Assembly (NCBI GenBank): GCA_016182085.1
Contig: JACOYB010000005.1
Coordinates: forward strand, 66,061 to 130,060
Origin: Candidatus Magasanikiibacteriota bacterium
GTDB taxonomy: Bacteria; Patescibacteriota; Patescibacteriia; Magasanikbacterales; GWA2-37-8
Reading direction: 5' to 3'
DNA length: 64,000 nucleotides
Shown here: positions 36,365 to 62,740 of the stretch, one piece after another
How the letters are laid out: each line of letters starts with the position of its first letter
Position numbering within the stretch: position 1 is the stretch's first letter
Translations under genes and position numbers: made by a program
Notes under the pieces: generated by a model
Database searches by the model: none
Seen by the model: the letters and a program-made list of their open reading frames with translations, nothing else
Told to the model about the DNA's origin: nothing

Positions 36365-37210
36365 TTATTCAGGCACACAAGCATCATCTACTTCAACGAA
36401 CCCTCGTTTACAGTACCAACTTGATCCTAACACATAAGCGTTTGACGGTGCGATTACTTTCTCGCAAGAATTATTAACTTCCCTGTAGCCATTCTTACAA
36501 TACCAGCTTGAACCTAATATGTATGCATTCGGAGGGGCGATAACTTTTACACAAGAATCATTTTCTTCTTTATAGCCATTCTTACAATACCAGCTTGAAC
36601 CTAAAACATAGGCGTTCACTGGGGCAATTACCTTTTCACAACTATCGCCTACTTCTTTATATCCATTCTTGCAGTACCACTGAGAGCCTAAAATATATGC
36701 ATCTTTTGGGGCAATAACTTTTTCGCAAGTTTCACCGATCTGTTTGTAACCATTTTTACAATACCACTCTGAACCCAACACATAAGCGTTTAGAGGCGCT
36801 ATTACTTTCTCACAACTCTCGCCCACTTGCCTATACCCATTCTTACAATACCAATCGGATCCTAATACATAACCATTAGCAGGTGCTTTAACTTTTTCAC
36901 AGGTTTCATCAACTTGCTTATAACCATTCTTACATACCCAACCCATACCAGATGTTAATGCATTTTCTGGAACTTTCTTTAACGGACAATCATAACAGTC
37001 TTTATAATATCCGCTTGGTGGATACACAACTCCGCCACCGGCAGGATATGTTGGATATAAGCATGGATGTCCAGCATCTCCACATGTATAAGAACCAGTA
37101 TCAGAAGGACAGGAGTGCCAACGATGACAACCAGAGCGATGGGCAAAAGCAGGTGCTGATAAAGACAATACCCCTAATAAAACAACTAAAGCTAGTATGT
37201 ATTTTTTCAT
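36365..37210 (-). CDS. Secreted cysteine-rich tandem-repeat protein
   Basis: Signal peptide (AFA cleavage site). N-terminal HRSGCHRWHSCPSD motif. About 8 tandem ~27-aa repeats with consensus NAYVLGSxWYCKNGYxxVxxSCEKVIAP, two Cys per repeat. Confidence 0.7.
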   Translation of the reverse strand: MKKYILALVVLLGVLSLSAPAFAHRSGCHRWHSCPSDTGSYTCGDAGHPCLYPTYPAGGGVVYPPSGYYKDCYDCPLKKVPENALTSGMGWVCKNGYKQVDETCEKVKAPANGYVLGSDWYCKNGYRQVGESCEKVIAPLNAYVLGSEWYCKNGYKQIGETCEKVIAPKDAYILGSQWYCKNGYKEVGDSCEKVIAPVNAYVLGSSWYCKNGYKEENDSCVKVIAPPNAYILGSSWYCKNGYREVNNSCEKVIAPSNAYVLGSSWYCKRGFVEVDDACVPE

Positions 37211-39693: not shown

Positions 39694-40557
39694 TTATAAT
39701 ACCAACCCTTCCCGATTCTCTTCTTCTTTTCTATTTAGAATATACACATCGGCATTGTATTCGTCATTTCCCACAAACTCGGCTTTTTTGTCTAGGATAG
39801 CTTCCATAGGGGCGCATGTGGAGCAGCCATCACCCGCGGCGCATTTGTACCGTTCCAACTGACGGGCCAATTTTACTTGTCTGGCCACATCCAAAATTCT
39901 TTTATGAGAAGTTTCCAAATCCGGCAGTTCTTTAGGCGAAAGCTGGTCACTGCTATCCAAATACCAATAGCTGGCGCGGCTGGCTTGGCGTTTTTGACAG
40001 TTTTGTACCAAGAGCCTATAAATCGGCAGCTGCAATGATTCGCCGTCTTCTTCGCTCTTGCCGGTTTTAAAATCTATAATATGCACGCTATCGGTATCGG
40101 GCAGATACTCCAGCCAATCTATCTTGCCGCATAAAATAATACTATCCTCTTCGGATAACCAAAATTGCGGCAGATCCATTTGGATTTTTACCGCTAACCC
40201 CGAAATTGGCCCGGGATTATTCATTACCCGTCGTATCATGTCTTGGCCACGAGTTTTGTATTTATATTCTGTTTCCGGGCTGGTAAAACCGCCCTTTTTG
40301 CCGGTTACTTTACCCCAGACCTTTTCAAATTTATCCATCAGCGAATCGGAAAATCTGGAATGCTTAGGTAGTACCGATAATGATTCCAATACTTCATGCA
40401 CGGCCGAACCCAACGCCAAAGCCGGGCTTACTAATTTTATTTTATGATTGGTTTTTGGGTCGCGGTATACGTTTTTTAAGTAATACGCGCGCGGACAGCG
40501 TAAAAAATCGCTTATGGAACTATGCGATACCCAGGTAGCAGTATATTTATCGGGCAT
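39694..40557 (-). CDS. PD-(D/E)XK nuclease with Cas4-like Fe-S cluster cysteines (stand-alone)
   Basis: N-terminal RCPRAYYL. IDWLEY...IIDFKTGK is a PD-(D/E)XK core. C-terminal C-x5-C-x2-C (CAAGDGCSTC). No cas genes or array nearby. Confidence 0.6.
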   Translation of the reverse strand: MPDKYTATWVSHSSISDFLRCPRAYYLKNVYRDPKTNHKIKLVSPALALGSAVHEVLESLSVLPKHSRFSDSLMDKFEKVWGKVTGKKGGFTSPETEYKYKTRGQDMIRRVMNNPGPISGLAVKIQMDLPQFWLSEEDSIILCGKIDWLEYLPDTDSVHIIDFKTGKSEEDGESLQLPIYRLLVQNCQKRQASRASYWYLDSSDQLSPKELPDLETSHKRILDVARQVKLARQLERYKCAAGDGCSTCAPMEAILDKKAEFVGNDEYNADVYILNRKEEENREGLVL

Positions 40558-40562
40558 AAGTT

Positions 40563-40715
40563 ACAATTAAAAGTGTCATCCTGAATTTATTTGCAAGTTG
40601 AGTGAGAGAAAAGTAAATTTTTACTTTTCCGAACGAGCGAAGCAAATATGTTTTAACTATATTTCAGGATCCCCCTGATACCATAAGATCCCGAAACAAG
40701 TTCGGGATGACAGCT
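40563..40715. repeat. Composite palindromic intergenic element (TGTCATCC...GGGATGACAG termini), containing one copy of the GAGTGAG-hairpin-CGAACGA module
   Basis: Terminal inverted motifs gtgtcatcctgaa and ttcgggatgacag. Internal hairpin GATCCCGAAACAAGTTCGGGATG. Internal module GTTGAGTGAGAGAAAAGTAAATTTTTACTTTTCCGAACGAGCGAAG is homologous to the ftsA-upstream tandem repeat. Confidence 0.6.
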
Positions 40716-40881
40716 AGGAATCCAAGGCATCGGCTACAGCGTCTTCTTCGCTTTCGCCTTCATCAAGAAGCCGCACTGCTTTGGCTGCCTGCTCTTCATC
40801 TAAATTAAAATCACTCATCAGTTCGTCAACCGCGGCAGCGACATCTTCTACCGGTTTTTCTTCATCAATTTGATTTTGCAT
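40714..40881 (-). CDS. Small acidic protein (55 aa, hypothetical)
   Basis: ORF MQNQIDEEKPVEDVAAAVDELMSDFNLDEEQAAKAVRLLDEGESEEDAVADALDS, found by hand and below the ORF-track cutoff. Its stop codon lies inside the palindromic element. Confidence 0.3.
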   Translation of the reverse strand: MQNQIDEEKPVEDVAAAVDELMSDFNLDEEQAAKAVRLLDEGESEEDAVADALDS

Positions 40882-41117
40882 ATATTTTTATATTAATTAT
40901 TAAAATTAAAAATTTTTAGTTCGGACATATTCATTTTTTCCCCCATCTCCACTCCGGTTTTTCACCTGTATAATAGCAGATTATAATTAAAATTACAGTG
41001 GATAAAATAAACGGCTTACCAACCTTATCTTACCCGAAAAATAAATTCGTGGCAACATTGACTTTGCTCACTCAGAAGAGTCTGGTGGAACTTATGCAAG
41101 AAAAAGACAAAAAAATT

Positions 41118-41654
41118 TTAATTTAAAGTGAGCAGGCCTGATTTTTCTAAAATATCCTGCCATCTTTTCATTTGATTTTCAGTAAGCCAAGAAAAAACCG
41201 GAATAAATTCCTCTTCCGGCGCGCTTGCTTTATTCTGCTCTTCAATCATTTTTTCAATTACTTCATCAGTTAGCGCGCCATCGTTATTTACAGGATTAAT
41301 TTCGGAAATGGATTCCAACTCATTTTGCTGCATTTGTTTCTCTAAATTTCTAACTTTTATGGCTTTCTGAAACAACACTTTCATTCTGAAACCTTTATCT
41401 AAAATATAGCTATCAACCGCTTCGGCATATAATGATTCAAAATCTTTAATGTGTTCCAAATGTCTTTCTTTATATCCTTTTATCGAGCTTTCACTAATAG
41501 TTATCGCGTCTTCCTCTGAAACTGGAGGCAAACTTAATAACATCATATCCTTTTCTAGGGATTTTTCGCCATCTCTGCAGAATTCTTCAATAAGATTTCT
41601 TAACTGCTTAACTTCTTCAAATTTTTTCTCCATCTTATTTCTTTCGCCTTCCAT
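41118..41654 (-). CDS. Hypothetical coiled-coil protein
   Basis: The long ORF reads through tRNA-Thr. Trimmed to the internal Met (MEGERNK...) downstream of the tRNA. No recognised domain. Confidence 0.45.
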   Translation of the reverse strand: MEGERNKMEKKFEEVKQLRNLIEEFCRDGEKSLEKDMMLLSLPPVSEEDAITISESSIKGYKERHLEHIKDFESLYAEAVDSYILDKGFRMKVLFQKAIKVRNLEKQMQQNELESISEINPVNNDGALTDEVIEKMIEEQNKASAPEEEFIPVFSWLTENQMKRWQDILEKSGLLTLN

Positions 41655-41680
41655 AAAAAAAATATTTACAGTTATACTAG

Positions 41681-41753
41681 AGCCGAGAATGGGGATCGAA
41701 CCCACGACCTGCGGTTTACGATACCGCTGCTCTACCAGCTGAGCTATCTCGGC
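41681..41753 (-). tRNA. tRNA-Thr (anticodon CGT)
   Basis: Hand-folded cloverleaf: acceptor GCCGAGA/TCTCGGC, D-arm GCTC-AGCTGGTA-GAGC, anticodon stem GCGGT/ACCGC with loop ATCGTAA, T-arm GTGGG-TTCGATC-CCCAT. CCA is not encoded. Confidence 0.85.
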
Positions 41754-41759
41754 GTAATT

Positions 41760-41872
41760 CCTTGAGCGGACGATGGGAATCCCCGCCCGCCATCGCAAGC
41801 TTGAGCTTGTTTAGGCGTTGCGGGCGGGGAACCCACGACTCAACCTTGCCTGCCCGCCAGCGCTTCGTTTGA
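41760..41872 (-). other. GC-rich degenerate tRNA-like fragments (pseudo-tRNA remnants)
   Basis: The minus strand contains GTCGTGGGTTCCCCGCCCGC and GGGGATTCCCATCGTCCGCTCAAGG, which resemble T-arm/acceptor halves of the flanking tRNAs. No complete cloverleaf could be folded. Confidence 0.35.
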
Positions 41873-41942
41873 GCGAGTGAAGGGAATCGAACCCTCATCT
41901 CAACCTTGGGAAGGTTGCATACTGCCACTATACTACACTCGC
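41873..41942 (-). tRNA. tRNA-Gly (anticodon CCC)
   Basis: Acceptor GCGAGTG/CACTCGC, anticodon stem CAACC/GGTTG with loop TTCCCAA, T-arm GAGGG-TTCGATT-CCCTC. CCA is not encoded. Confidence 0.8.
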
Positions 41943-42010
41943 GCAGGCGAAGCGGGCGGGGGAGAAGGTCGCGTATTACCATTACACTACGCCCGCATGC
42001 ACAGAGGCTC

Positions 42011-42039
42011 TCCGATTAAAGCGGAGAGCCTCCTTGAGC
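42011..42039. terminator. GC-rich stem-loop (terminator candidate) between the tRNA cluster and the PPIase gene
   Basis: GAGGCTCTCCG-ATTAAAG-CGGAGAGCCTC is a perfect 11-bp stem, followed by an A/T-rich tract on the plus strand. Confidence 0.45.
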
Positions 42040-42053
42040 ATTATTAAATTGTA

Positions 42054-43091
42054 TTATTCTGCCTGCGCATCCTGTTCGGCAAACGGATCATGTACCTTGA
42101 TATATAATTTAGGCTTGTTATTTTTAATAGTCTCATCAAGATAGCTAATCAAGTCTGGCAGTTTGAAAAATATATGGCTAGCCCGAAGCTGCTCCTCATT
42201 TTGAGTTTTTCCATTTTCATCTTTTACACTCTCGGTCTTACGATCATCAAGTTTAATAATATGGAAACCATAGATACTTTCTACCACTGTCGGGTATACT
42301 TCTCCTTTCTTGAGAGAGAAAACCGCTGTCTCAAATTCGGGAACCATTCTTCCTTTTCCAAACCAACCAAGATCTCCGCCGGTTCCTTTGGTGCTATCAC
42401 CATTGTACTGCTTGGCAAGCGCGGCAAAATCAGCGCCTTTTTTAACTTCTTCCAAAACCTCTTGCGCTTTTGCCTTCAAAGATTCCTTGACAGACGGATC
42501 TTCTTGCATCTTTTTAGCCAGTTTGCTCTGTAAAATAAACGGACGAATCACCTTTTGCTCATAATCGGCAAAGCTCCACCCATATCTTTTCATCAGTTCT
42601 TCTTCAAGCGCGGCTTCATCTTTAAACTGGGCGCGCATTTGATCTTTAAGATTATTAACGTCTTGTTCTTCAACGCTAACTTCGTATTGTTTGGCCGCTT
42701 CTTCAACCAACAAGTTATTTATCAAACGCCACAACACCTGATCGCTCATCTGATCTTCAGTAAGATCTGCTCCCGGACTTCGTTCCAGCGGAACCCCATT
42801 TGCTCGTTGGGTCACATCATAATCTCGCATCGCTCGAATAGCTTTTAAATCTTCGCTATATCTAACATAGGAAATTGTATCATCGCCAACTTTTACAGCC
42901 GGTAAGCGCAGCGTCTTGGCTACAGCCAAAGTGAACTTATCAGAAGCTGCTTTGGCATATACCCGATAGACTCCAAAACCTACCGTACCGACAAGAAGCA
43001 AAGCTGCGGCTCCCAATACAATAAAAAGCTTTGGGGATGCCATTTTGACTGAATTTGTATTTTTCTCTCCAGCCGCATTTATTTCTGACAT
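42054..43091 (-). CDS. Parvulin-type peptidyl-prolyl cis-trans isomerase, membrane anchored (PrsA/SurA-like)
   Basis: N-terminal TM anchor. C-terminal PpiC domain FAALAKQYNGDSTKGTGGDLGWFGKGRMVPEFETAVF...GFHIIKL. Confidence 0.75.
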   Translation of the reverse strand: MSEINAAGEKNTNSVKMASPKLFIVLGAAALLLVGTVGFGVYRVYAKAASDKFTLAVAKTLRLPAVKVGDDTISYVRYSEDLKAIRAMRDYDVTQRANGVPLERSPGADLTEDQMSDQVLWRLINNLLVEEAAKQYEVSVEEQDVNNLKDQMRAQFKDEAALEEELMKRYGWSFADYEQKVIRPFILQSKLAKKMQEDPSVKESLKAKAQEVLEEVKKGADFAALAKQYNGDSTKGTGGDLGWFGKGRMVPEFETAVFSLKKGEVYPTVVESIYGFHIIKLDDRKTESVKDENGKTQNEEQLRASHIFFKLPDLISYLDETIKNNKPKLYIKVHDPFAEQDAQAE

Positions 43092-43112
43092 ATGTAATAA
43101 TTTACTTTTTAA

Positions 43113-43505
43113 TTAATTGAAAAAATACTTATACCATTTCTTGTAATTGGAAACGTTATCCCATTTTAACACAGCCGTATTCTCTTGTCTATTCTCTGCG
43201 CCTACCTCTTGCGGCACTACCACTACATGTTCGCCAGGCTTTGCCAGATTAAGCTCTGTACGCGCCTTTTCTTCGGCAAAACTATCGGATTGTACATATT
43301 TAAGCACGCCTAAGAGCTCCATTTTTTTAGATTCTAATTTTTCTGTCTGTTCTTCTAAATAGGCTATTTCCTGGCGCACCAAATAATCCTGATAGTAAGC
43401 GCGGGCATATTCAAACGTTACCATCACTGCCACGATAGCCACAATCAAGACAAATAGTTTTGACTTGAAGAAATGTTTCCAACCATCTTCTCTTACGGAA
43501 GGCAT
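43113..43505 (-). CDS. Septum formation initiator (FtsB/DivIC-like)
   Basis: 130 aa: N-terminal TM helix, coiled-coil (LEEQTEKLESKKMELL) and C-terminal ELNLAKPGEHVVVV, typical of FtsB/DivIC. Confidence 0.65.
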   Translation of the reverse strand: MPSVREDGWKHFFKSKLFVLIVAIVAVMVTFEYARAYYQDYLVRQEIAYLEEQTEKLESKKMELLGVLKYVQSDSFAEEKARTELNLAKPGEHVVVVPQEVGAENRQENTAVLKWDNVSNYKKWYKYFFN

Positions 43506-43542
43506 ATTTCTTAAAAATCTAACGATTAGGATTTATATTATA

Positions 43543-44178
43543 TCACTTACTATTTTGAGCATTCAAATTAGGCTCAAGCTGTTCATTTATCAGTCTTTTT
43601 ACTTCTTGTAAATCACCATCCGGCAGACTCGGGATTATTCTAATGAAATTATTATAAATCACCCGGCTGTTTGATACTTTAATATCTTGTTTGTACTGCT
43701 GACTGACGTCCGAAAGCAGGTTTTGGATCTGCGCCGGATTATGAATATGAAAAATTTCCAAAGCAAAATTTTCACTTTTTGTAATAATGGACACGCCGCC
43801 TACATTAAACAAACTTTGCCAAATCCCTTTTTTTCTTATGGCTATATCTTTAATATCCAAATAATTAACCGAGGAAATAATTTCATCAAACCAGCCTAAG
43901 CGATGAATATCTACGGCTCGGGAACTGGTAACTACCAGCATATTGCCCCGATTTTTAAGCAGGGCGCTTAAGATAAAATAAAAACCAAGCAACATGCCCA
44001 CGACATAAATGACATCTCCCCACCAACTGTAAAAAAATAAACGGAACATGAAAAAGGAACTGGCGAGCAAAAACGCCCCGCCTAGCATGTATTTCCATAC
44101 ATAGGCAAGTACATACGGCCGCACAACCATAATGATTTTTTCCTCGTCTTTGAGATTTATTTTTTTGGCGAGTGACAT
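43543..44178 (-). CDS. Membrane protein with bacterial PH (bPH_2/YdbS-like) domain
   Basis: Two adjacent TM helices followed by a ~100-aa soluble region. Architecture resembles YdbS/YdbT. Confidence 0.4.
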   Translation of the reverse strand: MSLAKKINLKDEEKIIMVVRPYVLAYVWKYMLGGAFLLASSFFMFRLFFYSWWGDVIYVVGMLLGFYFILSALLKNRGNMLVVTSSRAVDIHRLGWFDEIISSVNYLDIKDIAIRKKGIWQSLFNVGGVSIITKSENFALEIFHIHNPAQIQNLLSDVSQQYKQDIKVSNSRVIYNNFIRIIPSLPDGDLQEVKRLINEQLEPNLNAQNSK

Positions 44179-44179
44179 A

Positions 44180-45475
44180 TTATTTTTTAACCTCTAAAAG
44201 TATTTCTCGCGCTACTTTACGATCATCCCAAGGGATTTTCTTACCGCCCGCAATCCCAATAAATGGCTCCGTGCCTTTAGCTGTAATCACAACCACATCG
44301 CCCGCCCTAGCCAAAGAAATTGCCTTGGCGATTCCATTTCGCCTATCTACCTCAATAAATAAATTTTCATTATCTTTTTTGCCTGCTTCGCGCGCCCCCT
44401 TGGCCAGCATTTCCGCTATTTCATGAGGGTCTTCGTCATAACAATTTACGTCTGTTACTACCACATAATCCGTGAGTCGTCCGGCAATCTCACCCATTTT
44501 CTCTCTTTTGCCCTTGTCGCGGCCGCCGCCATCGGATCCGACTACGGAAATAACTTTTTTATCCGGCCCAACCATTTGGCGTAAACTTTTAAATAATTCT
44601 GTTAAACTCATGGGTTCATGCGCATAATCTACAATTACTTTAAAATCTTGGCCCGCCTCTACCATTTCCATGCGTCCCTCAACTAACTTTACACTGCTAA
44701 GCCCTGCCGATATTTTGTCTAAAGAAATATTTTGCGACTTAGCTACAGCTACAGCTGCCAAGGCATTATACACATTAAACTCTCCTAAAATATTTAATCT
44801 ATACGTAGCGCCTTCAGCTTCAAAATCTACACCACTATTATCAGACGATACAATACGACCAGCCACATTTGGAACTTGCGGTCTTGTGTTTGTTTCTTTT
44901 ATGCTAAAAGTAAATTTTTTATCAGCTGCAAATTGCAGATAATAATCGGCATTTTTATCATCAATACTCGCCACAATGACTTTTGGCACTTTCTGCCCGC
45001 CTAACACTTTGTTTTTTGTTTTCGTGAGCTCGGCAAAAATCTTACCTTTATCTCTTTTTAAATTTTCAAATCCGCCATGACGTTCGTGATGTTCGGTGCC
45101 TAGGTTGGTAAATACCACGACATCGTAGAGCAAGCCAAAATGGCGATACTGCAAAATACCTTCGGAAGATGTCTCCACCACCACATATTTGCACTCAGCT
45201 TCCACCATTTGTTTTAACATGCTCTGAATCTGCCCGCGGCCAAGCATGGTCATTTTCTTATCATTAAGCCAGCGTTTTTCTCCAATTTGAAATTCAACGG
45301 TACTTAGCAGACCAACTTTAAAACCACCCGCTTCCAAAGCCGAAGCTATAAGGCGGCAGGTCGTAGTCTTGCCTTTTGTGCCCGTGACACCCACGACAAT
45401 TAATTTGCGAGCCGGGCGTCCATAACGCCAATACGCAAGCCAGGCCAGAAACAAATGTATAAATTTTTTTAACAT
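44180..45475 (-). CDS. Mur ligase family protein (MurE/MurF-like)
   Basis: IVVGVTGTKGKTTT is a Mur ligase P-loop, with central and C-terminal Mur ligase regions. 431 aa. Confidence 0.75.
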   Translation of the reverse strand: MLKKFIHLFLAWLAYWRYGRPARKLIVVGVTGTKGKTTTCRLIASALEAGGFKVGLLSTVEFQIGEKRWLNDKKMTMLGRGQIQSMLKQMVEAECKYVVVETSSEGILQYRHFGLLYDVVVFTNLGTEHHERHGGFENLKRDKGKIFAELTKTKNKVLGGQKVPKVIVASIDDKNADYYLQFAADKKFTFSIKETNTRPQVPNVAGRIVSSDNSGVDFEAEGATYRLNILGEFNVYNALAAVAVAKSQNISLDKISAGLSSVKLVEGRMEMVEAGQDFKVIVDYAHEPMSLTELFKSLRQMVGPDKKVISVVGSDGGGRDKGKREKMGEIAGRLTDYVVVTDVNCYDEDPHEIAEMLAKGAREAGKKDNENLFIEVDRRNGIAKAISLARAGDVVVITAKGTEPFIGIAGGKKIPWDDRKVAREILLEVKK

Positions 45476-45482
45476 AACAAAA

Positions 45483-46058
45483 CTATTGTCTCAAACTGAC
45501 TTCATATAAAACCTGCTCCAATTTATGCAGAGCTTGTTTAGCTTGATCAAATTTCTGGCGGTTATAACCGGTTAAATTCATATCAACGAGTTCGCCAATA
45601 ATTTCGTCGGCCGCAGCTCGGCATCTTTTTACTTCTTCAAACTTTTTTTCCGTAGCCGATTTTATGGCATAACGCAAAAGTTCTCCGGGCACATCGCACA
45701 AACCGCCAACAAAAATATCCGTGTCTATCTTGATTTTGGGCAACTTGCCGATAGTTTTCTTCTGCAGATAGCGATTAAACAAAGACGCTTCCACAAACTC
45801 TTCCAAGGCTGCTTTATACGATCCTTCCTCAAAAATTCCCGGCTCTTTCTTATGTTTAATGTTTAAATCCACAATAATTTTTTCCGCCTGAGATAAAAGC
45901 TGCTGAGCTTCACCGGCATCATCTCTTTGCATGGCAAAAATCGCTTTCTTGGAAAGAAACTGCGCCTGGCTGGATTCTTTTATTACTTCCTGCCGCTTAG
46001 CCGCATAGCCCAACAATTCTTGCCGCACTTCGTTAAAATATTTTTTGTCTAGTGTCAT
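45483..46058 (-). CDS. Translin-family protein (putative)
   Basis: 191 aa all-helical protein. GGLCDVPGELLRYAI resembles the translin DxxGELxR catalytic motif. Recognition is from memory. Confidence 0.4.
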   Translation of the reverse strand: MTLDKKYFNEVRQELLGYAAKRQEVIKESSQAQFLSKKAIFAMQRDDAGEAQQLLSQAEKIIVDLNIKHKKEPGIFEEGSYKAALEEFVEASLFNRYLQKKTIGKLPKIKIDTDIFVGGLCDVPGELLRYAIKSATEKKFEEVKRCRAAADEIIGELVDMNLTGYNRQKFDQAKQALHKLEQVLYEVSLRQ

Positions 46059-46084
46059 AAAAATCTTAATTTTTTGTCATTTCC

Positions 46085-46160
46085 AACTTGATTGGAAATC
46101 CAGCGCCCAAACAAATTGTCTGGATTCCCGCTTGCGGCGGGAATGACAGTGAATTATTCT
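46085..46160. repeat. Palindromic intergenic element, same family as the 40.6 kb and 54.1 kb copies
   Basis: tgtcatttccaacttgattggaaatccag...ctggattcccgcttgcggcgggaatgacag, with terminal TGTCATTTCC / GGGAATGACAG inverted motifs and two internal hairpins. Confidence 0.6.
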
Positions 46161-47155
46161 TTTTCTAAATTTTTTATATAATCAGGTATTTCGCGTTCGC
46201 CTTTGCTCTCTAACCAATACCACCACTCGGCCCCCCATAAGTACGCGCGCGGCATGCCGGTCTTATCGGCAAATCGTATATTTTTCTTCAATCTCTCCAA
46301 ATTCATTGACTTAAACTGTTCATCTACCGACGCGTCCGCTAATTTTTTATCCGGAATCCAAGGTTCAGCTTGAAGTTCGGTAATGTAAGCAGCATTTATA
46401 TCACGGCCATTTAACCATAATTTTGCTTTGTAAACAAACGCCGGCATAATCCAATCATAACTAAAATATCCCAAAGTTTGGTTCCAAACTACTCTATACA
46501 TGGTAGTGCCAAAAAGATCCGCGGCCTTGGCTGTATGTCTCCACAGGCTTAACTCGCCGCTGTCAGTCACGATAACTGGATGGTTTGGATCTAAACTTTT
46601 TACCAAACCAACTTCTTGTTTCAGGTCCTCATCAGACATTGGCATACAGTCGCCAAAACGAAGAAATGGCTCATTTTCTACTTGCCAAACTTCTAAAGCC
46701 GGGTGATTTTTATACTTCTTTATAACCGCCCTCATAAAATTTTCCAACTCTGGTTTGTATAGTGCCGCACTGGCAGAATCAACCCAACTTGGATCATGAC
46801 ATTCGGGCCAGCGCGGTGTTTTGTGGCCTATGGCCAAGACTACTTTTGCATTTTTTTTCGCGCTCTGGTCCATCATCCAATCTAAGTCGCGAAAATCATA
46901 ATCACCTTTCGTTCTTTCTATTAAATTCCATTGCGCCGATAAACGAATATGTTTAAAATTCCAATCTTGCAAAATTTTACTAAAAACAACCCTCGGATCA
47001 AAACCAAGATATTGCGCGTACTCGGTATTAAAACTGACTCCATAAATCATAGTGCCACTTCTTTTAAAATTTTTTATCTTAACAACTAAGAAAACGAGAC
47101 CGAGCGCAAGTGCTATATAAACTATAATTACCAGAATTAATTTTGACCGATTCAT
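46154..47155 (-). CDS. Glycoside hydrolase, clan GH-A (TIM barrel, NEP motif) with N-terminal membrane anchor
   Basis: N-terminal TM helix. LEVWQVENEPF provides the catalytic acid/base NEP signature. Start trimmed to the Met of MNRSKL to avoid a 35-nt overlap with the EamA gene. Confidence 0.5.
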   Translation of the reverse strand: MNRSKLILVIIVYIALALGLVFLVVKIKNFKRSGTMIYGVSFNTEYAQYLGFDPRVVFSKILQDWNFKHIRLSAQWNLIERTKGDYDFRDLDWMMDQSAKKNAKVVLAIGHKTPRWPECHDPSWVDSASAALYKPELENFMRAVIKKYKNHPALEVWQVENEPFLRFGDCMPMSDEDLKQEVGLVKSLDPNHPVIVTDSGELSLWRHTAKAADLFGTTMYRVVWNQTLGYFSYDWIMPAFVYKAKLWLNGRDINAAYITELQAEPWIPDKKLADASVDEQFKSMNLERLKKNIRFADKTGMPRAYLWGAEWWYWLESKGEREIPDYIKNLEKE

Positions 47156-47156
47156 A

Positions 47157-48110
47157 TTATGAAAGCACAAGCAACAATAAACCAAACGCAATAATAATTA
47201 TGGCCGCCGCCTTATGTATTACCTGCCGCCTGGTGAAAGTTTCTTTTAGAATAAATGGAAAGAATTTTGAAATAATAGCTACAAAAATAATAAGCAGAGC
47301 ATACTGCACCCCCGACATGGCGTTAACAAGCGATACGCTGCCAAGCGACATGGCATATTGCAATAAAATTGTAGCCACCACGCCCAAACCAACTCCCAAA
47401 CCAACAAACAATACTTGTTTCTTTTTCGGCATCTTTTCCGGGAGCGCATCTGGTTTTTTAATAAATAACGCGCGCACATCCGCGTTTAAGAGCAGCAGTG
47501 AAGCGGCAAAAATTCCGATGGGCAATTTTGTCCAAACAAAACCGCTAATAAAACCGTAGCTGTCAAAGGCATACTTGGAAGCAACGTGAGAAATAGCAAA
47601 CAAGAGTCCGGATAGTACAGCCCACCCCAAACCATCATGCCACATACCGGATGTTTGTTTTTTCTCAAACGAAATAATGAGGGAACCAAGAATTAAAAAT
47701 CCAGCGCCAATTAACGATTGCCCGGTTAATTGTTCGTATAAAAAAATCCGGCTGAGGAATAAAATAAAAAAAGGAGCTACGGCGCCGATAAGCGGACTGG
47801 CACGGCTTACTTCGCTTTCTTGGATCGCGTTATACATGGCCCATAAGGCAAAGAAGAAACATCCTCCGGAAATAATAAATATTAAATAATCGGTCCAGAC
47901 AGAGGGCATATAGACAAACCCAAACGGCAGGACAAGAAAAAATGCCAGGATAAAAATAGTGGAGTAAAAAACGAAAACAACCGGTTTGGAAACCGTTTTG
48001 GTAAGGATAAATTTATCGGTAACGCCCACGGCGGCCAAAACAGCATTCCCTAGTAGGGCTACAAGTATTGACATATATTGATTTAATAATTTTAACATTA
48101 AACCGCGCAA
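47157..48110 (-). CDS. EamA/DMT family transporter
   Basis: 317 aa, 10 predicted TM helices in two 5-TM halves. Confidence 0.6.
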   Translation of the reverse strand: MRGLMLKLLNQYMSILVALLGNAVLAAVGVTDKFILTKTVSKPVVFVFYSTIFILAFFLVLPFGFVYMPSVWTDYLIFIISGGCFFFALWAMYNAIQESEVSRASPLIGAVAPFFILFLSRIFLYEQLTGQSLIGAGFLILGSLIISFEKKQTSGMWHDGLGWAVLSGLLFAISHVASKYAFDSYGFISGFVWTKLPIGIFAASLLLLNADVRALFIKKPDALPEKMPKKKQVLFVGLGVGLGVVATILLQYAMSLGSVSLVNAMSGVQYALLIIFVAIISKFFPFILKETFTRRQVIHKAAAIIIIAFGLLLLVLS

Positions 48111-48130
48111 AGGGCAATTAAATTACGCGC

Positions 48131-48194
48131 TTGACAGAGCGCCCTAGTATGTTACAAATACAGTATCGCTTCCGCAGTATGGAAGCTGGAGGGG
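48131..48194 (+). promoter_or_regulatory. Putative promoter (TTGACA...TACAAA) and strong Shine-Dalgarno (GGAGGGG) of the GC-rich orphan gene
   Basis: TTGACA at 48131-48136, 16-nt spacer, TACAAA. GGAGGGG lies 4 nt upstream of the ATG at 48199. Confidence 0.3.
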
Positions 48195-48198
48195 AACC

Positions 48199-48618
48199 AT
48201 GTCCAAATCACAGGCCAAGCAGCTTGTAACTCCCGGGTTTGTACCGGTTCAGACTGCAACGTTGTTTCTCGGCCAATATGTGGTGGAGTTCTACGACCCG
48301 ATCTCTGACGAAGAGGATGGTCGTATTGACCTCCAGACAATCATTGGACGGGGTAATGAAGTAACCGTGGGCGCCACCATGAGCGAGGGGGATGCAAAGA
48401 AATTTGAAAGTCTGATGTTTAGCTATCCTGAACTGCATCTGCATCTTCGCGAAAAGCAGGTGATCTTTCCTGCTTCCAGCCCAAGGCCGGGATGTATTCG
48501 GTACTTTGAACTTGGGGAAGGCAATGATACATGGTACCATTATGCAGGGCCCATGGATACATGCCGAAAGGGTGTGTTGCTCGTTTGTATTTATGAGCCG
48601 GATGCCCCGAAAAACTAA
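48199..48618 (+). CDS. Hypothetical protein in a compositionally foreign (GC-rich) segment
   Basis: 139 aa ORF with a strong SD. Local GC is visibly far higher than the flanks (about 50% vs about 38%). No recognised motif. Confidence 0.55.
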   Translation: MSKSQAKQLVTPGFVPVQTATLFLGQYVVEFYDPISDEEDGRIDLQTIIGRGNEVTVGATMSEGDAKKFESLMFSYPELHLHLREKQVIFPASSPRPGCIRYFELGEGNDTWYHYAGPMDTCRKGVLLVCIYEPDAPKN

Positions 48619-48831
48619 CGAGAAGAACGACCCGTGAGTAACCGGTGGATTTTCGCAAAAACCAAGCGACAGTCCACCGGAGTTAAGTATTAAAATCTCT
48701 TTTCTCAATTTAGCGATTTTTCCTTTACATTAGCCAAAAAAATAACTTTAACCAAAAAAGCCTTTGCTCCTTGACAAAACCTCTAAAATATGGTATATTA
48801 TTTTGTTAATTTTATAATTAACCATAATCAT

Positions 48832-49992
48832 ATGCGCATAGCCATGATCGGACAAAAAGGCGTCCCGGCAATATATGGCGGCATAGAACGTCATGTGGAG
48901 GAATTGTCGGTAGAATTGGCCAAACAAGGCCACGACGTTTTTGTATACGCTCGCGAATGGTTTACTGATAAAAAGATTAAAAAATACCAAGGGGTCAATA
49001 TAATTCACACCCCTACTTTACGCACCAAACATTTGGATGCAATTGTGCATACACTCACTTCCACCATTCACGCACTCATACAAAAACCTGATGTAATTCA
49101 TTATCACGGCGTTGGTCCAGCCTTGCTTAGCTGGATTCCAAGACTTTTTTCTTCAAAAATTAAAGTGGTAGTAACCATGCACTGTCTTGATCGTTACCAC
49201 CAAAAATGGGGATTTTTTGCCCGCTTCATGCTTCGTGTTGGCGAATGGGCCGGATGCACGTTTGCCCACCAAGCGATTTCAGTTTCTAAAACCATTCAAG
49301 GTTATTGTTTGAATGAATACCGCACGTCTACAACGTATATCCCCAATGGCATCAAAACTAACGAACACCAAAATTATTCGTTAATTGACCAGTGGAACCT
49401 TACGCCGCAAAAATATATTTTGATGGTTTCCCGTTTGGTAAAACATAAAGGCGCCCATTACTTGTTGGAGGCTTGGCAAATTGCCCGCCAACAAAATCCA
49501 GAGCTTCTAAAAGATTATAAATTAGCTATAGTTGGCGACGCTGTATTTACGGATGATTATGTTGCCAAGTTGCGACAAATTGCTCGCGGTGATAACAGTG
49601 TTGTATTCACCGGCTGGCAGAAAAGCCAAGAGTTAGCTGAACTATATGATAACACCACTCTGCTTGTGCACCCTTCGGAAAATGAAGGTTTGCCTATAAC
49701 CATATTACAAGCCATGTCATACGCCAAACCAGTACTTGTTTCAGATATTGCCGAGCACAAAGAAGTAGTAAGCGATGAGGATTTCTGGTTTAGCAATACC
49801 GATGTATATTCTTTGGCGGAAAAAATTGCCGAACTTATTCAAAAACCTGAATTACTAAAAGAAAAAGGCAAAGCCAATAAAATCCTGGTGGAAAAAAATT
49901 ATAGATGGGAAGATATCGCCAAACAAACAATTGCAATCTATTCTTCTATAAACACCGACACGCTCAAAAAACTTCAAGCTTTACGAGCTTAA
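48832..49992 (+). CDS. GT4 (group 1) glycosyltransferase
   Basis: MRIAMIGQKGVPAIYGGIERHVEEL N-terminus. LVHPSENEGLPITILQAMSYAKPVLVSDIAEHKEVV is an E-X7-E motif. Start trimmed to the Met of MRIAMIG. Confidence 0.8.
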   Translation: MRIAMIGQKGVPAIYGGIERHVEELSVELAKQGHDVFVYAREWFTDKKIKKYQGVNIIHTPTLRTKHLDAIVHTLTSTIHALIQKPDVIHYHGVGPALLSWIPRLFSSKIKVVVTMHCLDRYHQKWGFFARFMLRVGEWAGCTFAHQAISVSKTIQGYCLNEYRTSTTYIPNGIKTNEHQNYSLIDQWNLTPQKYILMVSRLVKHKGAHYLLEAWQIARQQNPELLKDYKLAIVGDAVFTDDYVAKLRQIARGDNSVVFTGWQKSQELAELYDNTTLLVHPSENEGLPITILQAMSYAKPVLVSDIAEHKEVVSDEDFWFSNTDVYSLAEKIAELIQKPELLKEKGKANKILVEKNYRWEDIAKQTIAIYSSINTDTLKKLQALRA

Positions 49993-49993
49993 A

Positions 49994-50038
49994 CAAAAAC
50001 GGCCTTGCAGGGGCCGTCTTTGTTTTGGTTATTTTTTT
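49994..50038. terminator. Bidirectional rho-independent terminator between convergent GT4 genes
   Basis: ACGGCC-TTGCAGG-GGCCGT stem-loop extended by AAAAC/GTTTT, followed by TTGGTTATTTTTTT. Confidence 0.6.
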
Positions 50039-51252
50039 AAACGTATCGCTTCACGGTATATTTCTTCCAGTCTGTTGAAATAGTCGTCGGGATTATGATT
50101 TGTTCGCACTGTTTCCATAGCTGAAGCCGTAATGGCCGAGCCTTGCGCATCTGTTGTTTCCATAGCGCGCCTAATAGTTTTGGCCAGATCAGCCGGATCT
50201 TCGGGTTTAGCCAAAAATCCGCTCACCCCATTTTTTATGAGCTCCGGATTCCCGCCTCTATCTATAGAAACCACGATTCGGCCATAGCTCATAGCTTCTA
50301 GAATTGCCAAGGAACAATTTTCATAAAATAACGATGGCACCACTACAACCTTGGCTTCATTCATTACCTGTTTCCATTTCTCGCCTCCTACCCACCCCAC
50401 TCGTTCAATGTTAGATAAAATATTCTTGCGCGCGAATTCCTGAACCCAAGCATCTTCGGGGCCGCTGCCGACAATTTTGATTTTGTAATTACGCAGGTCT
50501 TTGGCCGCCTCCATAAGAATTTTTATACCTTTTTCATAATGCACGCGGCCTAAATACACAACTTTGTCGCCAAGCGGCGCGGGTGTGGTTTGCGGACTAA
50601 ACGGATTGCGAAGCAACCTCATTTTCTTGGCCGGAAATCCATACTCCACCATTTTGTCGGCCATAAACTGGCTTGGGCAGATATACAAATCAATTCGTTT
50701 CCAAATTTTTTTAAATCTGTAAAAATATGCTTCCATGACCCCAGCTATACTTGGCAACAACCTATTATCCACGCATTTATAACGAATACAACTAAATGGA
50801 TTACGATAACAACTCTCGCATAATGTTTCACCTTTCAAAAAATTACGGCTGGGAGAAATTGGAAAAAAATCATGCAAAGTAAGCACGGTCGGAACTTTTA
50901 ACTCGTACAGTTTTGTAAAGGTGCTGGCAGACAAGTGGTGATAGACGCTATGCAAATGCGCCACTTCCGGCTCTTCGGCCATAACCAATGCTCCCAATTT
51001 TTTTTCAATCTCTTTGGAAACAAATAGGCGTTTAAAAATTTTCCATTTTGTGGCGAAGTCTTGCTTTTCAAGAAGTTCCGGCACTTCCGAGGCAAAATAG
51101 GCGCTATATTCGGATGGAAAATTCCCCGTATGACTCATCGCAAATTCACTCACTTCATGCCCGCGCTGACGCAAGCCTTTGATAGTATCAAAAAGCACTA
51201 CCTCCACGCCGCCCCGGCGGTAAAAAAATTTATTTATTTGTAATACTCGCAT
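50029..51252 (-). CDS. GT4 (group 1) glycosyltransferase
   Basis: VVVPSLFYENCSLAILEAMSYGRIVVSIDRGGNPELI is an E-X7-E motif. Confidence 0.8.
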   Translation of the reverse strand: MRVLQINKFFYRRGGVEVVLFDTIKGLRQRGHEVSEFAMSHTGNFPSEYSAYFASEVPELLEKQDFATKWKIFKRLFVSKEIEKKLGALVMAEEPEVAHLHSVYHHLSASTFTKLYELKVPTVLTLHDFFPISPSRNFLKGETLCESCYRNPFSCIRYKCVDNRLLPSIAGVMEAYFYRFKKIWKRIDLYICPSQFMADKMVEYGFPAKKMRLLRNPFSPQTTPAPLGDKVVYLGRVHYEKGIKILMEAAKDLRNYKIKIVGSGPEDAWVQEFARKNILSNIERVGWVGGEKWKQVMNEAKVVVVPSLFYENCSLAILEAMSYGRIVVSIDRGGNPELIKNGVSGFLAKPEDPADLAKTIRRAMETTDAQGSAITASAMETVRTNHNPDDYFNRLEEIYREAIRLKK

Positions 51253-51258
51253 AATTTA

Positions 51259-51966
51259 TCACTTAACGGCAACAGCCACCAAATTTCGCGCGTCTTTTTT
51301 GGGGGCGCGATGATTCCCTTTTGAATAATACATTTCTTCTATCTTAAAACCCGCTTTTTTTAATAATTCTTTTAGTTCTTTTTTGGTAAAATAATGATAA
51401 TAGCGCTCTGCTAAAATTTCCCCCTCTTGGGTTTTCCAAGGAATAAGATAATCGTTTTCACTTAATAATTTCCAGTCTTTTTTAAATTTTTCCCGGGCCC
51501 AGTTACTTTCTAAATTCCAAGTCGTAATTATCAATCGGGCTTTATCTTTCATTTCTTTATACACCTGTCGCAACAGTTTAAGGCGAGATTCGGAATTTGG
51601 AAGGTGGTGGAAAGAGGCCACCATAAAAACCAAGTCAAAAAAACTATCTTTAAATTTTACTTCTTTTTTAGCATTAGAAAAAAATTTAACTGCGCCCTTT
51701 TTTACCTCTTCGGCGTGAACCTTCTTAGCGATCTTTAAAAGTTCCCCGCTCTGATCTACTCCATAATAGTGAAAAGTTTTATTTTCTAATATATATAATA
51801 ACCGGCCATTGCCGCATCCCCAATCCAAAATATATTGATCGTCATGGATAAATTCTTTGAATTTTTCCAGCTCCGCGGCGCTATATCTGGTACTGGCAAA
51901 AAGCTGGGCTATACGGTTGTAATCTTCCCGGGTTTTATGTATAATCCGTACGTCTTCCTTACGCAT
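51259..51966 (-). CDS. Class I SAM-dependent methyltransferase
   Basis: ILDWGCGNGRLL is motif I. Confidence 0.8.
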   Translation of the reverse strand: MRKEDVRIIHKTREDYNRIAQLFASTRYSAAELEKFKEFIHDDQYILDWGCGNGRLLYILENKTFHYYGVDQSGELLKIAKKVHAEEVKKGAVKFFSNAKKEVKFKDSFFDLVFMVASFHHLPNSESRLKLLRQVYKEMKDKARLIITTWNLESNWAREKFKKDWKLLSENDYLIPWKTQEGEILAERYYHYFTKKELKELLKKAGFKIEEMYYSKGNHRAPKKDARNLVAVAVK

Positions 51967-51974
51967 AAAAATGT

Positions 51975-53627
51975 ATGTCCATTACTGAAAAAGTAGTTAA
52001 ATATTTATCTATTAACCCGCCCGTAACGGCGGCTGATTTTAGCGAATCTTTACGAAAAATGCTGCGTCAAGAAAAAAATCCTGCTATTTCTATTCCCAAC
52101 AAGCGGGACCTGCTTAAATCATACCATAAATTAATAAAAACCAACAAGATCAAAAAAAGTGTTCAACTAGAAAAAATGCTCCGCCGCCGCGCGGTGCGCA
52201 CACTCTCGGGTGTTACAATTGTTACTTCTTTGGTAAAACCCTATCCTTGCCCCGGCAAATGCGTGTACTGCCCTTTGGACGCGCGTATGCCGAAAAGCTA
52301 CCTATCCGACGAGCCAGCTGCCGCCAGAGCGCTGTCGTTGGAATTTAGTCCGTATGACCAAATGGCCAAACGTATTGAAGCCCTAGAAAATAACGGCCAC
52401 CCAACCGACAAGGTAGAACTTATTATAAAAGGCGGCACTTGGAATTCGTATCCCCTGCCTTATCAATATTGGTTTATTTTAAAATCTTTTGAAGCAGCCA
52501 ACCGTACGGGACAGAAAAATAAAACCCGAGCCACCAAACTGCACGAAAATTCTTCGATTAAAAAACTGCGGGCCGAACTGCTCAAACAACAAAAACTTAA
52601 TGAGAAATCTAAGCATAGAATTATTGGCCTCACTTTGGAGACCAGACCAGACTCTGTAAATTTACGCAGCGTTTGGCAAATGCGAGAGATGGGCTGTACC
52701 CGTATAGAACTTGGCATCCAACATACCCATGACGATATTTTAAAACTAATTAAACGAGGGCACGATAATGCCAGATCAAAATGGGCCACGGAAATGCTCA
52801 AAAATTATGGCTATAAAACCGATTTTCACCTAATGCCGCAACTACCTGGGGCTACACCGGAAACCGATTTGAGCATGATGATAGATGTTTTTACTGATCC
52901 TGGATTTCGGCCGGATATGATTAAAGTTTACCCATGTTCGGTAATCAAAAATTCTGAGCTATACGATTGGTTTAAAGCTGGAAAATACAGAGCTTACCCA
53001 ACCGAAGACTTACTAACCATGCTTAAAAAATTTAAGCCGCACGTCCCTCGCTACTGCCGCATCTCGCGCTTGATTCGCGATATACCGGGTCAATATATTG
53101 AAAATGGCAATACCGTTACCAACTTGCGCCAAGTAATCCAAGAGCAAATGAAAAAAGAAGGCACCAAATGTGTCTGTTTGCGCTGCCGAGAAATATCTCA
53201 TGTGGATATTACTAATATTAAAGACCTAACACCTCATCTGTTTGTAGATGAATATGCCACCCAGGGCGGCACGGAATATTTTTTGAGCTTTGAAGATAAA
53301 GACCGACTGGTTGTGTTTGGTTTTTGCCGTTTGCGCATCGTAGATAAAAATATAATAGCAAAAAAAGACAAAAAACTAGCGCCATTTCCAGCCTACATCC
53401 GCGAACTTCATACGTATGGACAGCTGGTAAAAATCGGTACCCAAGAAAAAGGACACAGCCAACATACCGGCTTAGGTAAAAAATTAATAAAATTAGCAGA
53501 AAAAATTACGGCTGAACAAGGCGTGCATAAATTGGCGGTAATTTCTGGTGTAGGTGTACGGGACTATTACCGAAAATCTGGATATAAGCTGGAAAATACC
53601 TATATGGTAAAGAGGCTAAAAAGATAG
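51975..53627 (+). CDS. Elp3-like radical SAM / GNAT acetyltransferase (tRNA wobble-uridine modification family)
   Basis: CPGKCVYCP radical-SAM Cys cluster in the N-terminal half, and a C-terminal GNAT fold (GLGKKLIKLAEKI). 550 aa, matching Elp3 architecture. Confidence 0.75.
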   Translation: MSITEKVVKYLSINPPVTAADFSESLRKMLRQEKNPAISIPNKRDLLKSYHKLIKTNKIKKSVQLEKMLRRRAVRTLSGVTIVTSLVKPYPCPGKCVYCPLDARMPKSYLSDEPAAARALSLEFSPYDQMAKRIEALENNGHPTDKVELIIKGGTWNSYPLPYQYWFILKSFEAANRTGQKNKTRATKLHENSSIKKLRAELLKQQKLNEKSKHRIIGLTLETRPDSVNLRSVWQMREMGCTRIELGIQHTHDDILKLIKRGHDNARSKWATEMLKNYGYKTDFHLMPQLPGATPETDLSMMIDVFTDPGFRPDMIKVYPCSVIKNSELYDWFKAGKYRAYPTEDLLTMLKKFKPHVPRYCRISRLIRDIPGQYIENGNTVTNLRQVIQEQMKKEGTKCVCLRCREISHVDITNIKDLTPHLFVDEYATQGGTEYFLSFEDKDRLVVFGFCRLRIVDKNIIAKKDKKLAPFPAYIRELHTYGQLVKIGTQEKGHSQHTGLGKKLIKLAEKITAEQGVHKLAVISGVGVRDYYRKSGYKLENTYMVKRLKR

Positions 53628-53635
53628 TAAGATAT

Positions 53636-54028
53636 ATGGGTATGCAGCTACCTCCTAATTCAATTATCGCTTCTGGGCCGGTTATCATAGAAGATAACAA
53701 GGTTTTGCTTAATCGTGAAAAAAAAGAAAACGGCATTACACCCTGGATGTTTCCAGGCGGTGAAGTAGAAGAATTTGATAAAAGCTTAGAAGAGGCTTGC
53801 CACCGAGAAGTAGGCGAAGAAATGGGAATAAAAATAGAAATCATAAAACCACTCAAGCCAATAATGATTTACCAAAACGAACGAGTGATTATTCTAGCTC
53901 ATTACTTGGCCAAGAGAATTGGAGAGATAAGCCCGGGCAAAGATATATCGGAATGGGCCTGGCATGATATAAATAATTTACCTAATAACTGTGCACAAAA
54001 CGTATATGATATAATTAGTTCTCTATAA
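53636..54028 (+). CDS. NUDIX hydrolase
   Basis: FPGGEVEEFDKSLEEACHREVGEEMGIK is a Nudix box. Confidence 0.8.
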   Translation: MGMQLPPNSIIASGPVIIEDNKVLLNREKKENGITPWMFPGGEVEEFDKSLEEACHREVGEEMGIKIEIIKPLKPIMIYQNERVIILAHYLAKRIGEISPGKDISEWAWHDINNLPNNCAQNVYDIISSL

Positions 54029-54039
54029 ACTCTCGGTTA

Positions 54040-54175
54040 CTGTCATTCCCGCTGCAGCGGGAATCCAGGCAATTTAGGATACTGGATTCCCAACTTGGTT
54101 GGGAATGACAAACGAAGATCCCTCATCATCCGCCTAGGCGGACTCGCTCGGGATGACAGTTAAAAACTAATTATA
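54040..54175. repeat. Palindromic intergenic element, same family, three hairpins
   Basis: tgtcattcccgctgcagcgggaatccag, ctggattcccaacttggttgggaatgaca and ccgcctaggcgg...gggatgacag. Confidence 0.6.
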
Positions 54176-54196
54176 TTAATAAAATATCATAATACT

Positions 54197-55444: not shown

Positions 55445-55463
55445 ATTAAAAATACATTTTATT

Positions 55464-62519: not shown

Positions 62520-62740
62520 AAACGAAATGAGTGAGTGAAGTGACAAGCTTGCTTGATCACTTCCGAACGAATAAGTTTATATCGCGGATATAATCGAAAT
62601 GAGTGAGTGAAATGTCTGGCTTGCCAAGACATTTCCGAACGAATAAGTTTATATCTGCTATATAAACGAAATGAGTGAGTGAAGTGACAAGCTTGCTTGA
62701 TCACTTCCGAACGAATGAGTTTATACCACAGATATAAGTT
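62520..62740. repeat. 3 tandem ~72-nt structured repeats abutting the ftsA start codon
   Basis: Unit: AAACGAAATGAGTGAGTGAA-[hairpin]-TTCCGAACGAATAAGTTTATAT. Hairpin GTGACAAGCTTGCTTGATCAC in units 1 and 3 versus ATGTCTGGCTTGCCAAGACAT in unit 2. Stems differ but the structure is conserved. Confidence 0.8.

Follow-up and report, generated by a model that had tools for sequence, protein, structure and literature searches.

The dRS3 repeat of Neisseria is defined as ATTCCC(N8)GGGAAT, and half of its copies are an oriented 28-nt 'NTS', CGTCATTCCCGCGMAVGCGGGAATCYRG (Chenal et al., Nat Commun 2025, PMC11893778). NTS-like 'Ssn-related motifs' (SRM) are found in many phyla, where they are described as multi-copy, almost exclusively intergenic and enriched relative to dinucleotide shuffles, and they are associated with, and often flank, ssnA, a 94-aa single-domain GIY-YIG gene (cd10448; PMC11893778). 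SsnA recognizes the hairpin solely in ssDNA of the sense strand; dsDNA, RNA and the reverse strand are not bound. Its cut falls a few nucleotides 5' of the motif. Mutagenesis identified the C just 3' of the palindrome as key to binding and the 5' GTC as key to cleavage, with the loop sequence free and extendable (PMC11893778). In N. meningitidis, the system reduces integration of transforming DNA bearing NTS. The Ssn systems studied experimentally are those of Neisseria and Wolbachia, and the main text of Chenal et al. names no Candidate Phyla Radiation (CPR) or Candidatus taxa (PMC11893778).

We analyzed a 64-kb stretch of DNA from a CPR host, Candidatus Magasanikbacteria (hereafter the window), in which an initial annotation had reported palindromic elements with inverted terminal motifs at three intergenic loci. 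These elements are real and, judged by their sequence, they are members of the NTS/SRM-Ssn class rather than REP-RAYT elements or terminators, which would extend the Ssn/SRM hairpin-repeat system to the CPR. Genomes of the CPR are minimal, and their dependence on DNA uptake is presumed. The assignment would also account for a class of spurious small ORFs and of assembly breaks in CPR MAGs.

Hairpin modules at three intergenic loci

Direct reading of the sequence resolved seven hairpin modules across the three loci, not three uniform elements. The loci themselves had been placed correctly, and our refined bounds show that the ends first given for loci 2 and 3 lay ~10–15 nt too far. The arrays and their modules are:

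Locus 1, 40574-40713, from a 55-aa acidic ORF to a PD-(D/E)XK nuclease gene: TGTC-ATCCTGAA-(78 nt)-TTCAGGAT-C; 15 nt; ATCCCGAAACAAGTTCGGGAT-GACAG
M1a, 40574..40671, + strand: TGTC + ATCCTGAA (78-nt expanded loop) TTCAGGAT + C; SRM-type hairpin of the 'ATCCTGAA' subclass (sequence and ssDNA fold)
M1a loop insert, 40588..40648, + strand: second-family hairpin with outer stem TATTTGC/GCAAATA, then GAGTGAG / CGAACGA, and inner hairpin GAAAAGTAAA/TTTACTTTTC
M1b, 40687..40713, - strand: CTGTC + ATCCCGAAC ttg TTTCGGGAT + C on the - strand (sequence and signature scan)
Locus 2, 46075-46149, from a GH-family glycosidase gene to the translin gene: TGTC-ATTTCCAA-cttga-TTGGAAAT-CCAG; 16-nt spacer; CTGG-ATTCCCGC-ttgcg-GCGGGAAT-GACAG
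M2a, 46075..46103, + strand: TGTC + ATTTCCAA cttga TTGGAAAT + CCAG (sequence and signature scan)
Spacer of the tail-to-tail doublet at locus 2, 46104..46119: 16 nt
M2b, 46120..46149, - strand: CTGTC + ATTCCCGC cgcaa GCGGGAAT + CCAG on the - strand (sequence, motif and signature scans)
Locus 3, 54040-54159, from a NUDIX gene to glyA: CTGTC-ATTCCCGC-tgca-GCGGGAAT-CCAG; 13-nt spacer; CTGG-ATTCCCAAC-ttg-GTTGGGAAT-GACA; third module ATCCC...GGGAT-GACAG
M3a, 54040..54068, + strand: CTGTC + ATTCCCGC tgca GCGGGAAT + CCAG; exact dRS3 (ATTCCC-N8-GGGAAT)
Spacer of the doublet at locus 3, 54069..54081: 13 nt
M3b, 54082..54110, - strand: TGTC + ATTCCCAAC caa GTTGGGAAT + CCAG on the - strand
M3c, 54117..54159, - strand: CTGTC + ATCCC ... 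GGGAT + C on the - strand, with inner hairpin TCCGCCTAGGCGGA (sequence and ssDNA fold)

On its sense strand, each of the seven modules reads (T)GTC, a palindrome with an ATYYC start, and C, the palindrome base being ATYYC...GRRAT. Most modules are paired tail-to-tail with their GTC ends outward (TGTC-hairpin-CCAG / spacer / CTGG-hairpin-GACA). The 5-bp outer stem of M3c encloses a hairpin of its own, making M3c an expanded-loop module. Every stem in the window modules is perfect, and 7/7 modules retain both the GTC and the C flank. Watson-Crick pairing in the stems is perfect on both strands, the arrays are strand-symmetric, and their predicted ssDNA folds are far more stable than those of shuffled sequences (z = -3.4 to -5.5).

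The terminal motif GGRATGACA occurs five times in the window against 0.48 expected, a count reached in 0/100 shuffles, and ATTCCC-N6-16-GGGAAT occurs three times against 0.07 expected. A sequence-agnostic search for GTC followed by a perfect stem of >=7 bp and C returned five matches in 64 kb, exclusively at these loci, all intergenic and all with ATYYC stems; dinucleotide shuffles gave a mean of 0.28 and a maximum of 2, so that the signature is ~10–20 times commoner in the window than in shuffles. As a background control we used 1.17 Mb of unrelated genomes (the UPF0213 loci described below), which held 13 matches, one of them with an ATYYC stem.

Similarity between the loci is uneven. Loci 2 and 3 have one module in common (M2b/M3a; 37 nt, 92% identity, inverted, E = 8e-7), and this part of the reported similarity stands; the terminal 12-mer is all that locus 1 has in common with them (E about 0.4). 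Stems, loops and spacers vary, and what the loci have in common is ~10 nt of flank plus architecture. We therefore see a motif-and-architecture family, not copies of one master element, and the idea of a single MITE with common internal sequence is not supported. The description as palindromic intergenic repeats, REP/MITE-like and with conserved inverted motifs at their ends, remains apt.

The match to dRS3 and NTS is closest in M3a, where 54045-54064 is an exact ATTCCC(N8)GGGAAT and the module fits the NTS consensus except at the first base and the hairpin center. M2b and M3b have N9, and the stems of M2a, M1a, M1b and M3c deviate from dRS3 (ATTTCC, ATCCTG, ATCCC). The GTC on the 5' side and the C on the 3' side, carried by all seven modules, are the SRM cleavage and binding determinants, and the tolerance of SsnA for loop extension fits the expanded loops of M1a and M3c. 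The published SRM pattern, HGTCWYN(0-2)YYVSBRHN(0-5)WNVSBRGN(0-2)RNCYNB, was built manually and matches one of the seven modules, M2b (46120-46148, - strand), with 0.06 matches expected in shuffles; the other six fail at loop and inner-stem positions. The window loops are N4–N5 rather than the Neisseria GCGMAVGC core, which explains why the regular expression catches so few.

Related hairpins are widespread. In the viral collection, at least 120 contigs carry the form GTCATTCCC-N6-14-GGGAATCCAG (G+C of 41–71% among the matches listed), and 60 carry the low-GC variant of locus 1, GTCATCCTGAA-N3-8-TTCAGGAT (including ATCCTGAA-N5-TTCAGGAT-C). The base that follows the low-GC variant was left unspecified in the query and is C in 83 of 88 matches, giving independent support for the 3' C binding determinant.

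Each array lies between co-directional genes and starts 0–11 nt past the stop codon of the upstream gene; M1b directly abuts the stop codon (40714-40716) of the 55-aa acidic ORF. The NUDIX-glyA and translin-glycosidase contexts were read correctly at the outset, and the neighbor taken for Cas4, next to the small acidic ORF, has only a PD-(D/E)XK family match. A Pfam scan of ~50 window ORFs identified only housekeeping and polysaccharide-synthesis genes; transposase, RAYT/Y1_Tnp and integrase genes were absent from these ORFs. The product of glyA, SHMT, is 100% identical to MBI2037857.1.

Several other features of this region were noted in passing. The gene beside locus 2 (45483-46058, - strand) belongs to the Translin family (PF01997), which is unusual in bacteria, and the order Mur ligase-translin-glycosidase is kept across Magasanikbacteria relatives (contigs L121 and L396). 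Within a 281-aa ORF (36365-37210, - strand), positions 36397-37021 hold six tandem 87-nt repeats that are 60–75% identical; the only matches of this ORF are weak ones to Cys-rich EGF/LIM-like repeats, and it is thus probably a repeat-containing surface protein. A 226-aa ORF listed at 41118-41798 overlaps tRNA-Thr (41680-41753), which indicates that its 5' part is spurious, and a tRNA-Gly gene lies at 41871-41942.

A second hairpin family

The copy at 40.6 kb had been said to embed an 'ftsA-type' repeat, physically linking two repeat families. Both observations hold: the repeat sits inside the loop of the hairpin ATCCTGAA...TTCAGGAT, so that a second-family hairpin is nested in M1a. Members of this family in the window are the 61-nt insert in M1a (40588-40648) and three 72-nt tandem units (62518-62737) that abut the ftsA start codon. 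Each comprises a variable outer stem, two covarying closing pairs, GAGTGAG opposite CGAACGA, GAA/TTC and a covarying inner stem, the conserved blocks GAGTGAG-N-GAA ... TTC-CGAACGA lying between the covarying stems. Opposite each other, GAGTGAG and CGAACGA can make two tandem G.A/A.G pairs with Watson-Crick pairs between them, and compensatory changes were seen in 10 of 16 predicted pairs.

We found the second family in >120 metagenome contigs (e.g. L121 16578-16619 and L261-L380), in 0 viral contigs and in no Rfam family, and no recurrent neighboring gene accompanied it. The ftsA-DAGK spacer holds three copies in the window, one in L121 and none in four other relatives. Among 140 copies, 19 have an ATG start codon exactly 9 nt from CTCACTC, and the genes behind these are diverse (e.g. 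ftsA, eno, L31, L24, L18 and ssb). The family inserts both into SRM loops and beside start codons. TIGR arrays, which consist of tandem units with UG / CCA box motifs and 8–12 nt dual spacers adjoining a Tas (Nop-domain) gene, were considered for the tandem copies and rejected: the conserved blocks here are GAGTGAG/CGAACGA, most copies stand alone at scattered sites, and no neighboring gene recurs. This hairpin family is undescribed and may be a more novel object than the SRM elements.

Empty sites, dispersal and Ssn-like genes

The initial annotation had proposed looking for presence or absence of the elements in related strains. We compared the window with close relatives whose SHMT is 92–94% identical (L121, L122, L395, L396/L397 and L398), and found the orthologous spacer of locus 3 empty in five of them and that of locus 2 empty in two:

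NUDIX-glyA spacer: window, 120-nt array in a 168-nt spacer; L121, L122, L395 and L396/L397, 34–42 nt, empty
Translin-GH spacer: window, 74-nt doublet; L395, 1 nt; L396/L397, 13 nt
Mur ligase-translin spacer: window, 7 nt; L121, a perfect TTGTCATCCTGAAC..GTTCAGGATGACAA module

L398 is likewise without an element upstream of glyA, and the translin-GH spacer of L121 carries two different hairpins that have no flanks. In L121 (9866-9960), most of the NUDIX gene has been lost and its last ~90 nt and stop codon remain upstream of glyA, indicating that this gene is dispensable in the lineage.

The composite of M1a, an SRM hairpin with its nested insert, has a ~95% identical copy over ~100 nt in another metagenome contig (L299:3197-3295). 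Its neighbors there are an rpoD-like gene and murG, and its flanks are unrelated, which makes the locus non-orthologous; the copy adjoins an ATTCCC-type doublet, and the ends of the composite coincide with TGTC...GGATC. Together with the empty orthologous spacers, this copy indicates that the elements are recent and dispersed. The insertions are younger than the split from the relatives with 92–94% identical SHMT.

No consistent target-site duplication was seen at the junctions compared. Locus 3 is bracketed by TTA (54037-54039 and 54160-54162) and the empty sites of the relatives have a single TTA, which may represent a 3-bp duplication; loci 1 and 2 show none of this type, and neither do L299, L380 and L121.

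The enzyme presumed to act on the elements had been expected to be encoded elsewhere, and by tblastn and profile search the 64-kb window has no GIY-YIG/Ssn gene. Ssn-like proteins are encoded in five of the 120 listed SRM-bearing contigs, and in L034, L084 and L120 an inverted pair of SRMs brackets the gene, GTC ends outward, which is the geometry of the window doublets with ~320 nt in place of 13–16 nt. A low-GC contig, L326, supplied a CPR-type Ssn seed, and the homologues in CPR proved numerous, with source names including Paceibacterota, Yonathbacteria, Moranbacteria, Staskawiczbacteria and 'Patescibacteria group'. A Staskawiczbacteria unit (L383) reads TGTCATTGC..GCAATCCAG-ssn-CTGGATTGC..GCAATGACA, or in a longer reading AGTGTCATTGC...GCAATCCAG-ssn-CTGGATTGC...GCAATGACATT, and similar SRM-flanked ssn genes occur in L387 (Moranbacteria), L326, L399 and L402. 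In other CPR lineages, Ssn-like genes are thus found between inverted SRMs with the TGTCAT...ATGACA ends of the window elements.

The SRMs that flank the CPR Ssn-like genes we examined are of the ATTGC/TTTGCGAG type, whereas the window has ATTCCC and ATCCTGAA types, and no Ssn-like gene was found in contigs with the ATCCTGAA variant. The 120 best CPR Ssn-like matches included no Magasanikbacteria name and no contig matching the relatives of the window. Two of the gene's settings stood out: in L402 (658-3291, Paceibacterota), an Ssn-like gene and several SRM hairpins lie between bAvd and reverse-transcriptase genes in a DGR-like locus, and in L399 (1501-2716, a CPR contig) an Ssn-like gene neighbors a Gp49/HTH (toxin-antitoxin-like) pair.

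A GIY-YIG gene does occur in one relative. This 85-aa gene (L122 4546-4803) sits in a relative-specific insertion with TerC, zinc-finger and cupredoxin genes. It is UPF0213-type (PDB 1zg2/1ywl, E = 2e-16), a subfamily common in CPR and Firmicutes from which the CPR Ssn-like proteins are distant (E = 0.004 to PDB 1zg2). Across 80 loci (1.17 Mb in total), genes of UPF0213 type were not associated with SRMs. We rejected the gene as the partner nuclease given its type, its absence from the window and from L121, and the lack of an SRM link.

Candidate explanations and known systems

We consider it probable that the elements are oriented dRS3/NTS/SRM hairpin arrays, substrates of an Ssn-type nuclease, that spread in a MITE-like manner. 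The modules would fold out as hairpins in intermediates of replication or in transforming ssDNA on its way into the cell, and there would be acted on by an Ssn-type GIY-YIG nuclease encoded outside the window. The tail-to-tail doublets (TGTC-hairpin-CCAG, 13–16 nt, CTGG-hairpin-GACA) would be gene-less miniatures of the SRM-ssn-SRM unit, spreading selfishly by insertion directly behind stop codons, among the few sites that a compact genome tolerates.

A stronger version, in which the doublets are non-autonomous mobile elements derived from SRM-ssn-SRM and Ssn, alone or with host factors, is the mobilizing enzyme, is tentative, and we think it rather doubtful. This version is compatible with the indel polymorphisms, with the composite that ends exactly at TGTC...GGATC and with the termini that units with and without a gene have in common. 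In a doublet, however, each strand holds one of the two cleavable (sense) hairpins, so Ssn cutting alone explains neither excision nor insertion. That NTS-ssnA-NTS looks like an IS was put forward by Chenal et al. only hypothetically (PMC11893778). If the mobile version were true, it would describe an ssDNA transposon/MITE system that is GIY-YIG-based, depends on hairpins and is active even in CPR genomes of ~1 Mb. The pairs of filled and empty sites, and the composite at non-orthologous loci, provide material for testing both mobility and the mover.

The repeats could instead be orphans in decay, inherited or acquired by recombination in a genome that has no cognate enzyme and in which they have no current activity. 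An SsnA homologue is missing from 19% of SRM-rich genomes (PMC11893778), the partner gene was neither found in the window nor assigned to this lineage, and degraded copies exist (L275, and the flank-less hairpins of the L121 translin-GH spacer). Given that the window modules keep perfect stems and both flanks, and that their insertions postdate the split from close relatives, we regard this explanation as unlikely.

A role in RNA, with the arrays acting as 3'-UTR hairpins (terminators, insulators or mRNA stabilizers) between co-directional genes, seems quite improbable, even though all three start just past a stop codon and fold far more stably than shuffles. The hairpins lack a U-tract on their 3' side, and a scan of 40-56 kb (40000-56000) gave 25 terminator-like sites of which none falls on an element, so that the terminator function once suggested for them is not supported; the arrays are also missing at the orthologous operon junctions of five relatives. 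Rfam gave no match to either repeat family at the gathering threshold or at E <= 5. The stems pair perfectly on both strands in strand-symmetric arrays, and SsnA does not bind RNA (PMC11893778). Side effects of the arrays on transcripts may nonetheless occur.

REP/REPIN-type elements carry a conserved 5' GTAG/GTGG tetranucleotide beside the palindrome (Nunvar 2010, Ton-Hoang 2012). Mobilization by a RAYT (IS200/IS605-like Y1 transposase) encoded elsewhere, as first proposed, would suit inverted doublets of short GC-rich intergenic hairpins, which resemble REPINs/BIMEs, and their polymorphism between relatives. It is nevertheless very unlikely: the modules start with GTC-AT, no Y1_Tnp or other transposase is among the window ORFs, and the motif matches NTS/SRM, whose documented partner is a GIY-YIG ssDNA nuclease and which elsewhere flanks GIY-YIG genes and not RAYTs. 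We similarly give very little weight to attachment or target sites for a site-specific recombinase or IS110-type transposase, modeled on dRS3 as the Nf1 integration target of Neisseria Nf prophages and on the precise insertion of the second family into the M1a loop, as there are no IS110, integrase or prophage genes in the window or beside the arrays in relatives, and use of such sites would not account for their origin.

Against this background, the Ssn-substrate reading can be set beside each described system. Like REP/BIME/REPIN elements, the window repeats are short GC-rich extragenic palindromes, often in inverted doublets, and for both the presumed actor is a domesticated nuclease or transposase, present in single copy, that works on the hairpins as ssDNA; the window modules differ from REP/REPIN-RAYT in having no GTAG/GTGG and in the enzyme superfamily, which would be GIY-YIG rather than HUH/Y1. 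With MITEs such as the Neisseria Correia elements, they have in common terminal inverted repeats (TGTCAT...ATGACA), small size, non-coding content, presence/absence polymorphism and an autonomous-looking counterpart with the same termini (SRM-ssn-SRM). Unlike MITEs, the window loci share no conserved internal sequence, although the M1a composite does with its L299 copy, and they lack a consistent target-site duplication, the only possible one being the TTA of locus 3. Self-complementary hairpins form each of their termini, and there is no DDE transposase.

The neisserial intergenic mosaic elements (NIMEs), RS elements bracketed by dRS3, share the layout GTCATTCCC..GGGAATCCAG - RS/spacer - CTGGATTCCC..GGGAATGAC (Neisseria array L015) and the presence of several modules per array. 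Their RS elements are ~50–150 nt and their arrays run to kilobases, whereas the window has spacers of 13–16 nt and arrays of two or three modules. Density can be compared as ~7 modules per 64 kb in the window with ~700 in a 2.2-Mb Neisseria genome.

The closest correspondence is to dRS3/NTS/SRM, with which the window elements share the palindrome base, the 5' GTC, the 3' C(CAG), orientation-defining flanks, an intergenic site, inverted pairs with GTC outward, variable or expanded loops, and repeat-flanked Ssn-like genes in related phyla. They differ in that no cognate nuclease was located in the window or assigned to its lineage, and in their low-GC stem variants (ATTTCCAA, ATCCTGAA and ATCCCGAA), which are unlike published SRM. 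New relative to the published systems are the CPR host, the clean pairs of filled and empty sites, the gene-less doublet geometry that matches SRM-ssn-SRM, and the nesting of a second hairpin family.
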